The translations under genes were made by a program, and so were the position numbers. Shown here in pieces: positions 7 to 2,994 of a stretch of 64,000 nt of DNA (position 1 is its first letter; each line of letters opens with the position of its first letter). The notes beneath the pieces were generated by a model. It saw only the letters and a program-made list of their open reading frames with translations. It was not told the origin of the DNA and made no database searches. This DNA comes from a virus: positions 1 through 64,000 of the IMG/VR virus record IMGVR_UViG_3300006802_000076; one strand, given 5' to 3'.

Positions 7-36
7 AAAAAAGCCCGGGGGCCGAAGCCCCCGGGC
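7..36 (-). terminator. Intrinsic terminator after the leftmost cassette
   Basis: Minus strand GCCCGGGGGC-TTCG-GCCCCCGGGC followed by TTTTTT, about 10 nt after the stop at 46. Confidence 0.85.
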
Positions 37-45
37 GATTCCCGG

Positions 46-279
46 TCAGTAGTTCCTGGCCGTCAGGTATCGGGCACCTTCCAGGTCGGTCCCGATCGGG
101 AACCGGACTTCGTGGTCGGTGGCCGTTTCCTGCCAGTACCGGATCGTGACGATCGCCTCGCCGTCGACGATCCGGATCGAAACGTCGATGTCCTCTTCGA
201 CGGTGGTGATGTCGAAGTCGTCGTCGTCGGGATGCCAGGTCAGTCGGATCGTTCCGACTGACAGGTCGATGTCTTGCAT
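46..279 (-). CDS. Cassette 1 hypothetical protein, 77 aa, acidic (MQDIDLSVG...)
   Basis: AGGAGGGG RBS before ATG at 279, downstream of the unit promoter; shorter than the 46..579 track ORF. Confidence 0.8.
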   Translation of the reverse strand: MQDIDLSVGTIRLTWHPDDDDFDITTVEEDIDVSIRIVDGEAIVTIRYWQETATDHEVRFPIGTDLEGARYLTARNY

Positions 280-331
280 TGCGTCCCCTCCTGGGAGTCG
301 TGCAGGGAGTGGATTCCCCCTGACAAAGACC

Positions 332-363
332 ACCTTAGCAGGTGGGACAGAATACGTGCGAAA
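332..363 (-). promoter_or_regulatory. Cassette promoter, unit 1 (TTTCGCACGTATT-N10-TGC-TAAGGT)
   Basis: Extended -10 TGnTAnnnT at the same offset in units 1, 2, 3, 5, 6 (also 781-812, 1287-1318, 2359-2390, 2814-2845); unit 4 has a deviant -10. Confidence 0.75.
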
Positions 364-526
364 CCTACAGGATCGCGTACCCTGTTGGACTGGCGTGCAA
401 GCTACACGCTTCGCTGCTTGCCCGCCAGTCGGCGGGTGGAAGAGAGATATGTGTGAAAGTTGAGTTGGGATAAGTCGTAATGTGTCTGGTGTTGTGCCCC
501 GGGGCCGAAGCCCCGGGGCCACACCG

Positions 527-733
527 TCACGCCTCCATCGTGGTCTTGGCCATGGTGAAGATGGTTCCCCACTCGTCAACCTTGACGAGGCAGATGATGC
601 CGGAGTACCCAGAGATGGCGGCGGCGTTCACCGCCGCCCCGTAGGCCATGATGGCCTCCCTTTCCTCCGTCGTGCCGACGAAGTGGGCAGTGTTGCCCAC
701 TCCGTTGTGGAACCGGTGCTGGATTGCGTACAT
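527..733 (-). CDS. Cassette 2 hypothetical protein, 68 aa (MYAIQHRF...)
   Basis: GGAGG RBS before ATG at 733; weak similarity to the cassette 6 ORF. Confidence 0.8.
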   Translation of the reverse strand: MYAIQHRFHNGVGNTAHFVGTTEEREAIMAYGAAVNAAAISGYSGIICLVKVDEWGTIFTMAKTTMEA

Positions 734-973
734 GATCCTCCAATCATGCTTGCGGCGAGCCTCTCCCGCCGACAGATGTAACCTTAGCACATGAGACAGA
801 ATGCGTGCGAAACTTGCAGGCTCGCGTACCCTGTCAGACTGGCGTGCGATTTTGTTGCACCGCACCGCACGCCAGTCGGTCGGTGTGTGAGAGATATGTG
901 TGAAAGTTGTAGGGATGATGAGAGTAATGTGTTTGGTGGTGGCCCCGGGGCATGTCGCCCCGGGGCCGGTGTG

Positions 974-1009
974 TCACCCGATCAATGCTCGGAGTATGAT
1001 TCCTAGCAT
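974..1009 (-). CDS. 11-aa micropeptide MLGIILRALIG
   Basis: Strong RBS GAAAGGAGGTGAC; homolog at 2045-2080; flanked by two GC hairpins. Confidence 0.7.
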   Translation of the reverse strand: MLGIILRALIG

Positions 1010-1063
1010 GTCACCTCCTTTCGGTAGTGGCGACCCCGGGGTCACGACCCCGGGGTCACACGG

Positions 1064-1237
1064 TCACCGACCGCCGAACTGCTCGTTCAGTTCGTCGGTG
1101 TAGGCCCACTCCCACTCCCGGCACTTGCGGCACTTCCAGTTCGGGTTCTTGATGTAGGAACCCTTGCCCGTAGCCCGGGCGGACTCCGTTGCGATGATGT
1201 CGAACCGGCCTTCATGGTTCAGAACGATGTGGAACAT
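1064..1237 (-). CDS. Cassette 3 hypothetical protein, 57 aa, with CxxC (MFHIVLNHEG...)
   Basis: GGGAGGGG RBS before ATG at 1237. Confidence 0.8.
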   Translation of the reverse strand: MFHIVLNHEGRFDIIATESARATGKGSYIKNPNWKCRKCREWEWAYTDELNEQFGGR

Positions 1238-1480
1238 GTCCCCTCCCAGGGAGTCGTGCAGGGAGCGAATCCCCCTGACAGACACAACCCTAGCACGTCG
1301 GTGAGAATACGTGCGAAACCTGGCAGTCAACCCTACCTGATCGACGGGCGTGCGATGTATCGCTTCGCCTCATCGCACGCCCGTCTTGGGGCGTGTGAAG
1401 GATATGTGTGAAAGTCGGAGTGGTGATGGAGGTAATGTGCCTGGTGTTGTGCCCCGGGGCCGAAGCCCCGGGGCACCCGG

Positions 1481-1804
1481 TCAGTAGCCCCCGGCGGTGA
1501 TGATGTCGACCCTCTGCAGGGCCTCCATCACGGCCGGATCGGTCGGCGCCGGAATCCCGACCTCCACGGCCAGGTCGATCGCCCTGGCCAGCATCCCGGC
1601 ATACTGACTGGCCACGTCGAACCAGTCAAGGTGGTCACCTGGACGCTCGCCCTGGACGAACGGGTCGAGCGCCGACATTGCGACCAGAGCGGCCTCGTAG
1701 CTGCTCTGGAAGGTCGGCCGAACCTCGTGGTCGGAATGGTCGATCAGGTGACCGATGATGGTCACAATCTGATCTAGGAGATGGAAACAGGTCAAGGTGT
1801 GCAT
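1481..1804 (-). CDS. Cassette 4 hypothetical protein, 107 aa (MHTLTCFHLL...)
   Basis: GGGAGGG RBS before ATG at 1804; GC-rich third positions. Confidence 0.8.
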   Translation of the reverse strand: MHTLTCFHLLDQIVTIIGHLIDHSDHEVRPTFQSSYEAALVAMSALDPFVQGERPGDHLDWFDVASQYAGMLARAIDLAVEVGIPAPTDPAVMEALQRVDIITAGGY

Positions 1805-2044
1805 GATACCCTCCCAGGTCGCACCGTCGGGGACGTTCCCCGACACGACCCATATACACATATGGCTTGAGATACGTGCGAAACCTGACATGTTGGCACA
1901 CCGTAAAGGCTGGTGTGCAAGCTGCACGCTTCGCTGCTTGCCCACCAGCCGGTCGGTGTGTGAGAGATATGTGTGAAAGTGGTAGGGTTGAATGATGTAA
2001 TGTGTTTGGTGTTGGCCCCGGGTCCGAAGACCCGGGGCCGGTCA

Positions 2045-2080
2045 TCACATGAACAGTGCTCTGAGTATGATGCCGATCAT
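2045..2080 (-). CDS. 11-aa micropeptide MIGIILRALFM
   Basis: RBS GAAAGGAGGTGAAC, tandem TGA TGA stops, homolog at 974-1009. Confidence 0.7.
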   Translation of the reverse strand: MIGIILRALFM

Positions 2081-2176
2081 GTTCACCTCCTTTCGGTCGG
2101 TGGGTGACCCCGGGGCGGATGCCCCGGGGTCGGTTGGGGGATTCTGTTGCCACGCTCCCCGCAAGCGCCGATCCTC

Positions 2177-2335
2177 TCAGTCGTGCCGGTAGATCCAGGC
2201 CAAGTCGCTCTGGATGGCGATGTCATCATCGCTGTCCCGATCGACCTTGCTGCCTGCCCAGTCCTGCCAGCAGATGTCCTGCTGGCGTCGGACGAGGTCC
2301 TGCTCGTCCCGGCGCTGGCGCTCCTGTCGTGTCAT
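2177..2335 (-). CDS. Cassette 5 hypothetical protein, 52 aa (MTRQERQRRDEQDLVRRQQDICWQDWAGSKVDRDSDDDIAIQSDLAWIYRHD)
   Basis: Manual translation; RBS GGAAGGAGGTGAGAC; below the ORF-track size cutoff. Confidence 0.8.
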   Translation of the reverse strand: MTRQERQRRDEQDLVRRQQDICWQDWAGSKVDRDSDDDIAIQSDLAWIYRHD

Positions 2336-2552
2336 GTCTCACCTCCTTCCATGCCTTCAATCTAGCACGTCGTCCCGAATACGTGCGAAACATGCCAGAC
2401 AGACACATCACAAGAGCTGGTGTGCAAGCTGCACGCTTCGCTGCTTGCCCACCAGTCGGATCACAAGAGAAAGATATATACGAAAGTTGGGTTGGGAGTA
2501 CAAGTAATGTGTCTGGTGTTGTGCCCCGGGGCCGAAGCCCCGGGGCACCCGG

Positions 2553-2765
2553 TCACCCGATGACCAGGGTGCGCATCGGGCGCACCGTGGCCATCTCATC
2601 GATGAAGACGAGCTTCAACTCGCCGTGGAACCTGTCCGAACCGATCGCCTGCTGGATGTAGTGGCTGGCGATTTCGGCGAGCTTTTCGTAGGCTTGCCTG
2701 TCTCCCTCCACATTGATGTTGACTCCGTACTCCGAAGCGTCGGTGATGATCTGGATGACGTACAT
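2553..2765 (-). CDS. Cassette 6 hypothetical protein, 70 aa (MYVIQIIT...)
   Basis: GGGAGGG RBS; follows the unit 6 promoter. Confidence 0.8.
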   Translation of the reverse strand: MYVIQIITDASEYGVNINVEGDRQAYEKLAEIASHYIQQAIGSDRFHGELKLVFIDEMATVRPMRTLVIG

Positions 2766-2994
2766 GTTCCCTCCCAGGGAGCCTGCAGGGAGCGAATCTC
2801 CCTGACAGATGTAACCTTACCACGTTGTCCAGAATACGTGCGAAACCTGCCAGTCCATGCACCCACAATCGCGGGCGTACGAGTTGCACGCTTCGCTTCT
2901 CGTACGCCCGCGAGACAAGTCTGGGATTGACCGTGGGTGACAGAGGATGCGCGCCGCGGAAGAATTCACTGGTTGCCTTCTTCGGCTGTGTATT

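Follow-up and report, generated by a model that had tools for sequence, protein, structure and literature searches.

At one end of a phage contig, small genes stand in a row, each behind a copy of the same long regulatory module. What is such an array for, and how did it arise? The question is raised by the first 3,000 nt of a linear IMG/VR virus record (IMGVR_UViG_3300006802_000076; 94,497 bp, estimated to be 91% complete), of which the first 64 kb (64,000 nt) are referred to here as the window. An initial annotation, made from the sequence alone, had proposed a platform for shuffling or capturing single-gene cassettes. The reading favored here, with a rough probability of 0.7, is that self-contained early-gene cassettes form a hyperplastic array where a leftward gene block has its far end, similar to the promoter-early stem-loop (PeSL) cassettes of T4-type phages (Arbiol et al., 2010, PMC2839356; Comeau et al., 2014, PMC4122927).

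Anatomy and extent of the array

On the minus strand of positions 1-3000, six units of ∼450-565 bp each were identified. The initial annotation had described them as repeated, self-contained single-gene expression units, and alignment of the six regions between the open reading frames (ORFs) (alignment A1) bore this out: the repeats are real, all listed parts were found, and the cargo ORFs have lengths of 77, 68, 57, 107, 52, and 70 aa, as stated. A later alignment (A4) comprised 14 modules. The module has five parts, namely a GC hairpin, a set of TTTCRCACRTAT boxes, a hairpin of ∼43 nt (hairpin-2), an extended -10 element, and a leader hairpin with a ribosome-binding site. Boxes B and C are variants of the same motif TTTCRCACRTAT, of which box A is a third, incomplete copy.

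The array continues beyond position 1. Metagenome contigs of the Joint Genome Institute (JGI) were searched with a gapped pattern spanning boxes A and B, which resulted in one true match, contig L303 (4,733 nt); the other two of the three matches, L302 and L304, were chance matches inside a gene. Bases 1-123 of L303 correspond to the last 123 bases of the record and bases 4665-4733 to its first 69 bases, both with 100% identity. L303 thus joins the array to the opposite end of the contig as well, supplies seven further cassettes and closes the map to a circle of ∼99 kb; this circle is known from assemblies alone, and a collapsed terminal repeat would give the same picture. The full array comprises at least 13 cassettes and two 11-codon mini sub-units in ∼7.3 kb, and the DNA at its end in L303 is low-GC backbone. 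The first 52 nt of the record, a gene end plus hairpin, recur exactly after cargo U9 in L303, and because of this repeat the contig was broken at position 1.

Each module has two or three copies of the TTTCRCACRTAT box at fixed spacing. Box C (TTTCGCACGTATT, at most one mismatch) occurs six times in the record and boxes A and B five times each, all of them in the array, and the counts of boxes A and C were reached in 0 of 100 shuffles. The spacing from A to B was identical in all nine modules that have box A, whereas in the last four L303 modules an extra hairpin replaces this box. Box B lies 95 bp from box C in most modules (93 or 94 bp in two measured), and the distance from box C to the -10 hexamer is constant in all 13 modules. 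Boxes 31 and 95 bp apart would lie on one face of the helix, and the phased copies are most likely sites for one DNA-binding regulator that would control all units together.

A TAnnnT hexamer was found in 12 of 13 modules, mostly with a preceding TG, and the start codon follows 47-58 nt downstream. The proposed form TGnTAnnnT therefore holds for most units, but unit 4 is not an exact fit in the six-unit alignment. The -35 position is occupied by the conserved box C, which is unlike TTGACA, and a scan for consensus promoters gave none on the array strand. The extended -10 promoter would be read by the host RNA polymerase, and the transcript would then present a 5′ stem-loop and a ribosome-binding site. 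In the module alignment the leader hairpins vary in sequence and keep their pairing. The GC hairpin that follows the gene would act as a stop or as a 3′ stabilizer. Most GC hairpins have no U-tract; that only the leftmost carries one, as first noted, is true within the window, but two L303 units have one too.

In the module alignment 93.7% of the cells of hairpin-2 are paired and 11 of 16 pairs show compensatory change. Compensatory cells numbered 41, compared to 14.2 in shuffles, a value reached in 0 of 500 shuffles, and the signal collapsed in register-shift controls. Hairpin-2 is thus under structural selection. On the sense strand G-U occurs at interior pairs and A-C at the terminal pair only; the interior G-U pairs weakly favor an RNA role, possibly that of a second stop or a processing site. 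The hairpin apex often reads GCGAAGC. The predicted fold of one entire module is much more stable than that of shuffled sequence (z = -4.6), and no Rfam family matched the module at threshold. The module was initially thought to exceed what a promoter and a terminator require; given the phased boxes and the covarying hairpin, this is indeed the case.

Read in the direction of its genes (all coordinates on the minus strand), the array starts from an entry region (2914-3180), in which a C/A-rich tract (3000-3180) is followed by a conserved entry sequence of 47 nt (2973-3019), 85% identical to the same junction in the relative G013. Module 1 (2766-2913) is the first of the array, which is the reason why it lacks the GC hairpin and boxes A and B, the first two parts having been noted as missing at the outset. 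It consists of hairpin-2 (2869-2911), box C (2833-2845), an extended -10, a leader hairpin and a ribosome-binding site, and precedes ORF6 (2553-2765, 70 aa, acidic, without a family match). Module 2 (2336-2552) has a GC hairpin (2523-2546), box A (2504-2518), a variant box B (2473-2487), hairpin-2 (2414-2457), box C (2378-2390), a -10 and a short leader; its cargo is ORF5 (2177-2335, 52 aa). Mini sub-unit A (2045-2176) follows, with a GC hairpin (2107-2130), a strong ribosome-binding site and an 11-codon ORF (2045-2080).

Module 3 (1805-2044) contains a GC hairpin (2015-2038), box A (1997-2011), box B (1966-1980), hairpin-2 (1907-1950), box C (1871-1883), an atypical -10, a leader hairpin and a ribosome-binding site, and is followed by ORF4 (1481-1804, 107 aa). 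The remaining three modules end in a -10, a leader hairpin and a ribosome-binding site. Module 4 (1238-1480; GC hairpin 1451-1474, box A 1432-1446, box B 1401-1415, hairpin-2 1342-1385, box C 1306-1318) precedes ORF3 (1064-1237, 57 aa) and mini sub-unit B (974-1063), which has a GC hairpin (∼1029-1057), a strong ribosome-binding site and an 11-codon ORF (974-1009). Module 5 (734-973; GC hairpin 943-966, box A 924-938, box B 893-907, hairpin-2 836-877, box C 800-812) precedes ORF2 (527-733, 68 aa), and module 6 (280-526; GC hairpin 496-519, box A 477-491, box B 446-460, hairpin-2 387-430, box C 351-363) precedes ORF1 (46-279, 77 aa), which is very acidic (isoelectric point 4.1). Positions 1-45 hold the GC hairpin with a U-tract (13-36), after which the array goes on in L303.

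Just upstream of the array, the transcribed strand of the C/A-rich tract (3000-3180, minus) is almost free of G over ∼180 nt, and similar tracts precede the arrays of two relatives (L332, ∼1900-2100; L331, that is G012, ∼2900-3060). The tract looks like a Rho-loading (rut) stretch and could shield the array from upstream transcription.

Codon partition and the phage tRNAs

Annotated genes of the record encode a portal, protease, capsid, fiber, ribonucleotide reductase and ThyX as well as DnaB, primase, SSB, an exonuclease and a UvsX-like recombinase, and two genes of the WhiB family are present. The capsid protein is 53-54% identical to those of Streptomyces cluster BE phages such as Jay2Jay and NootNoot. 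The phage appears to be virulent, siphovirus-like and distantly related to the cluster BE phages (Stanwilliamsviridae). Four tRNA genes were found, for Lys(UUU), Arg(UCU), Leu(UAA), and Ile(UAU), of which tRNA-Lys(UUU) lies in the window (60253-60325, plus strand) and the other three outside it. The BE-like capsid, the two WhiB genes and the tRNA set point to a high-GC actinobacterium as host. A gene for a ThyX-type thymidylate synthase (7307-7996, minus strand) belongs to the same leftward block as the array and anchors the synteny to the region just inside the terminal repeat of Jay2Jay. No sigma factor family matched in the record; a search for T7-type RNA polymerase also gave no match in the record, but none in control genomes either.

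The array has a GC content of 60% compared to ∼40% in the rest of the window (∼40% for the whole 94.5-kb contig). At the third codon position the GC fraction (GC3) is 0.84 in the cargo (13 genes, 1,091 codons) and 0.34 in the backbone (30 genes, 16,833 codons). AAA, AGA, TTA, and ATA are exactly the codons read by the four tRNAs of the phage. Together they account for 0 of 1,091 cargo codons and for 6.1 per 100 backbone codons, and the capsid gene and dnaE likewise avoid them. Comparable values were obtained for Jay2Jay, where genes of the terminal repeat have a GC3 of 0.52-0.93 and are almost devoid of these codons, while genes just outside the repeat have a GC3 of 0.42-0.58 and 2.6-11 such codons per 100. 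We infer that the array block is built for translation by the unaided host at once after entry: with host-style codons the cargo would be translated on DNA entry, before phage tRNAs accumulate. An early role of the cargo is consistent with this host-like use of codons and also with the synteny to genes in the terminal repeat of BE phages.

The only array ORFs with ATA or AGA are those of the two mini sub-units, which are paralogues. Read directly from the sequence, mini-ORF A (2045-2080) contains ATA and AGA, and mini-ORF B (974-1009) contains ATA. In both, the stop codon lies 5 nt upstream of a GC hairpin. These ORFs may encode leader peptides that sense the tRNA supply.

Relatives, known analogues and competing explanations

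A capsid protein search identified 304 related IMG/VR contigs. In all relatives examined, an array is present at the same locus and is GC-richer than the backbone of its own genome. G1 (L298, 90.9 kb) has a syntenic array of at least 10 units, in which the box is the palindrome TCTAACGTTAGA (56 copies in the array, 3 elsewhere). In G2, a complete genome of 108.7 kb, the boxes of the array are TGTAATATTACA-like (23 copies within it, 2 elsewhere). The grammar of both is alike and consists of a GC hairpin, boxes, a long hairpin, boxes and a -10. Some genes of G1 start 7-8 nt after the -10, which would mean leaderless mRNAs, an actinobacterial habit. The box types number at least three and differ even between phages whose capsid proteins are 97% identical. 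As had been suggested, relatives were checked for arrays with other cargo, and these were found: G012 and G013, whose capsid proteins are 97% identical to that of the present phage, share with it the C/A-rich tract and the 47-nt entry (85% identity), after which quite different GC-rich cassettes follow.

Cassette turnover was seen between relatives. G1 and L310 use the same box and have only two cargo families in common. L312 carries a 1-kb two-gene cassette that is not present in L314, and the single L314 module is a hybrid, its left side matching the left and its right side the right of the two L312 modules; the crossover lies within the repeated boxes and not in a hairpin. One cassette of L312 is also duplicated. 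Between L316 and L320 two cassette indels were found, with overlaps of 93 and 135 nt. The locus is thus hyperplastic, with indels between close relatives and hybrid modules at the joints. In the array studied here, the modules are mosaics in which the closest other module changes by segment, and non-adjacent units share an identical 52-nt end.

The initial view of a shuffling platform is therefore upheld for cassette turnover, but not for dedicated capture, since neither a tyrosine or serine recombinase nor an attC-like core was found. A genome check for recombinases had been called for; profile searches of the 94.5-kb record gave no match to Phage_integrase (PF00589; control genomes do match) or Resolvase (PF00239). 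Among the proteins that the phage does encode are SSB, an exonuclease and a UvsX-like recombinase. Homologous recombination between the ∼200-bp repeated modules is enough to explain the shuffling. Such general recombination would duplicate, delete and swap cassettes, whole arrays would be exchanged between related phages, and the UvsX-like recombinase of the phage itself could drive the exchange. As box sequences differ completely between lineages, the boxes cannot serve as universal exchange sites.

Two further observations were made in the relatives. At one syntenic backbone site, G1 (29040-29090) and G2 (97425-97450) hold two or three extra copies of their array box. The matching site here (L305, 1480-1700) has a long hairpin and four tandem 12-nt repeats; the box of this array was not found at that site or elsewhere in the genome. 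Directly after the second cassette of the G012 array (L331 ∼1750-1960 of the printed stretch, locus 4000-4210) lie ∼15 words resembling TTATCCACA, the DnaA-box consensus, in ∼200 bp, and this cluster could be an origin or a DnaA sink.

Among known systems, the PeSL cassettes are closest. There too, units that combine a stop hairpin with an early promoter are repeated on either side of small orphan genes, the regions concerned are hyperplastic, and the indels and swaps that distinguish close relatives have their joints within the repeats; the process needs no dedicated recombinase, and one of the UvsX type is present. In the present array a composite repeat of stem-loop and promoter was found, its promoter activity being predicted, as was a hyperplastic region that differs between close relatives; indels with joints in the repeats were found in relatives of another box type. 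The differences are considerable. The carrier is not a T4-type myovirus; it is siphovirus-like and related to Streptomyces phages, its capsid protein is closest to those of Streptomyces siphoviruses, and its host is an actinobacterium. Its module has about double the length of a PeSL, with two to three phased, lineage-specific boxes and the covarying 43-nt hairpin, and it has neither a TTGACA-like -35 nor a sigma-70 early promoter close to the consensus. All units adjoin one another in a single 7-kb array, and the cargo is written in a separate codon style matched to gaps in the tRNA set of the phage. The kind of cassette is hence already known, and this variant is distinguished by its phased multi-box module with the covarying second hairpin, by box types that are interchangeable among lineages with near-identical capsids, and by a codon partition that complements the tRNAs. 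The PeSL principle, in which regulatory repeats are the joints of gene shuffling, would thereby extend, in a far more elaborate form, to abundant estuarine and aquatic actinobacterial phages, and the phased boxes point to a putative regulator, for which the two WhiB proteins and the proteins of the RGRKS family (see below) are candidates.

By kinship the nearest counterpart is the terminal-repeat block of the BE phages. Published accounts of these phages give ∼50% GC with a host of 72% GC, numerous tRNAs, WhiB, and 20-25 small genes within a direct terminal repeat of 11-12 kb (PMC5764925; PMC7650747). Related virion genes (54% capsid identity), a block of small leftward genes on the left side of ThyX, small genes that are GC-richer than the backbone and avoid rare A/U-ending codons, including the near absence of AAA, AGA, TTA, and ATA, and a low-GC phage with its own tRNAs and WhiB genes in a high-GC host are found in both. 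In Jay2Jay (L210, 1-10800), units of a GC hairpin, a repeated GGACACTTTC-type box and an extended -10 were observed between the small genes; they are shorter and less regular than the modules here. The Jay2Jay cargo includes Lsr2-like and ParB-like genes, and its block is a proven 10.8-kb direct terminal repeat, whereas the present array is known from assemblies. Neither the repeats nor the codon partition of this block are described in the two papers (PMC5764925; PMC7650747). The small tRNA set of a low-GC phage can thus be tied, in a testable way, to a codon-partitioned early block, and cultured Streptomyces BE phages with the same codon pattern are usable as a test system. In T5 and SPO1, the pre-early or host-takeover modules lie at the end of the genome that is the first to enter, and they hold numerous small genes equipped with strong early promoters and stops. 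They show no sequence relation to the array and lack a uniform multi-part repeat. Terminal-repeat modules of T5 and SPO1 have been cited as analogues (PMC5764925).

Several points weigh against the favored reading. Without a TTGACA-like -35, a host sigma factor alone may be insufficient. Mycobacterial RNA polymerase needs U-tracts for termination, and because these are mostly absent from the GC hairpins, the hairpins may not be terminators. The non-coding module DNA is GC-rich as well, so that codon selection alone is inadequate to explain the composition. The arrays of L310 and L311, which come from two samples, are identical, so that turnover is not rapid. Cassette indels were seen only in relatives with another box type, and here only mosaic modules. 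A second array of this box type was not found: exact box scans of IMG/VR gave only single chance matches in unrelated low-GC DNA, and a DNA search of ten long relatives gave none.

A bolder model is put forward, although it is rather improbable. The array would be an immediate-early compartment independent of the phage tRNAs, combined with a switch timed by these tRNAs, and the box types would be operators of co-evolving, lineage-specific regulators. The mini-genes would sense arriving phage tRNAs and alter read-through or mRNA stability. As operator sets, the interchangeable box types would allow regulators to switch the whole array on or off, and entire early-gene sets would be swapped along with their control code.

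The GC-rich non-coding modules also bear on an unlikely alternative, namely that the 7-kb block was recently taken from a high-GC phage or host, that it retains the regulatory repeats of this donor, and that its GC content and codon style reflect this origin and not early expression. The sharp GC step (60% vs. 40%) and array types that do not track the capsid phylogeny would agree with such an import. So would a 65% GC island in the tail-fiber region (18254-19200), where ORF 18601-19338 has a GC-rich start and a low-GC end in one reading frame; this gene is an in-frame recombinant with high-GC DNA, probably the result of a host-range swap, and shows that the phage also imports high-GC DNA. However, every relative examined as well as Jay2Jay has a GC-richer block, which argues for a stable compartment rather than a single import. 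No homologue of the cargo was found in phage records or, for ORF4, among 5.8 billion proteins, and the total absence of exactly the four tRNA-matched codons fits selection.

It is very unlikely that the repeats act at the DNA level, as origin iterons, packaging signals near a genome end or priming sites formed by cruciforms or mini-hairpins. The boxes on one helix face (31 and 95 bp), the location where BE phages have their terminal repeat, and the apex GCGAAGC, a very stable DNA mini-hairpin, are in line with such a role. On the other hand, box C keeps its distance from the -10 in all 13 modules, the interior sense-strand G-U pairs, with A-C at the terminal pair only, favor RNA, and thirteen consecutive origins are unlikely.

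An integron-like capture system, in which the hairpins would be sites of a dedicated site-specific recombinase or HUH nuclease, is even harder to credit. Integron arrays also consist of single-gene units with variable cargo and structured repeats between them, the structure of the hairpins is kept while their sequence varies, as in attC sites, and cassette indels occur in relatives. Integrons are characterized by an adjacent IntI-type tyrosine recombinase and promoterless cassettes with an attC core. Here, inspection of the alignment gave no attC-like conserved core in either hairpin, each cassette has its own promoter-like site, the repeat is lineage-specific, and the L312/L314 crossover lies in the repeated boxes. 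Apart from the negative profile searches of the record, which did not include HUH families, no candidate gene was found in L303.

That a high-GC fragment was misjoined to a low-GC phage contig at the low-complexity tract, as the array at the contig end beside this tract and the 20-point GC step might suggest, can practically be dismissed, given that L303 ties the array to the other backbone end too, that relatives including the complete 108.7-kb genome have arrays at the same locus, that G013 and G012 have the same entry sequence followed by GC-rich cassettes, and that a GC switch inside one ORF occurs elsewhere in the contig.

Cargo proteins

Each cassette carries one small, mostly acidic orphan gene, and the cassettes form a catalog of orphan, putatively early proteins that are candidates for host takeover or counter-defense. 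Pfam and PHROGs gave no match for the cargo proteins searched (L303 cargo U8 was left out). No hits were obtained with tblastn for three cargo proteins against phage records, with blastn for the array against 50,697 phage records, or in a neighbor-protein search of IMG/VR. Within the array, ORF1 has weak similarity to L303 cargo U9, and no relatedness between ORF6 and ORF2 could be detected.

For ORF4 (1481-1804), a search of 5.8 billion proteins gave no match other than ORF4 itself. A confident helical-bundle model of this protein is available in the ESM Atlas, with a predicted template modeling score (pTM) of 0.79. Structural neighbors of the model include clusters annotated as zeta-toxin family, one of which has the epsilon-antitoxin family in a minority of its members. 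This likeness is regarded as a weak lead.

At the distal end of every array with the grammar of G1 and G2 lies a triad of genes for small proteins with an invariant RGRKS motif (12 IMG/VR loci). When the paralogous pair U12/U13 was compared with this family, hhalign gave a probability of 76-77%, and the pair is probably a distant member. Over 270 environmental relatives of the family were found, and all of them lack a name. Its structural model reached a predicted local distance difference test score (pLDDT) of 81.5; Foldseek gave no fold match at E ≤ 0.001, and the best VIA match (Z 5.8) was not convincing. A low-GC backbone gene (L305 2142-2453, genome 76141-76452, plus strand) has a start that resembles the N-terminus of U12/U13, with Arg-Lys-Val-Val followed by a Gly/Arg/Lys-rich run, and may be a distant paralogue of this pair.

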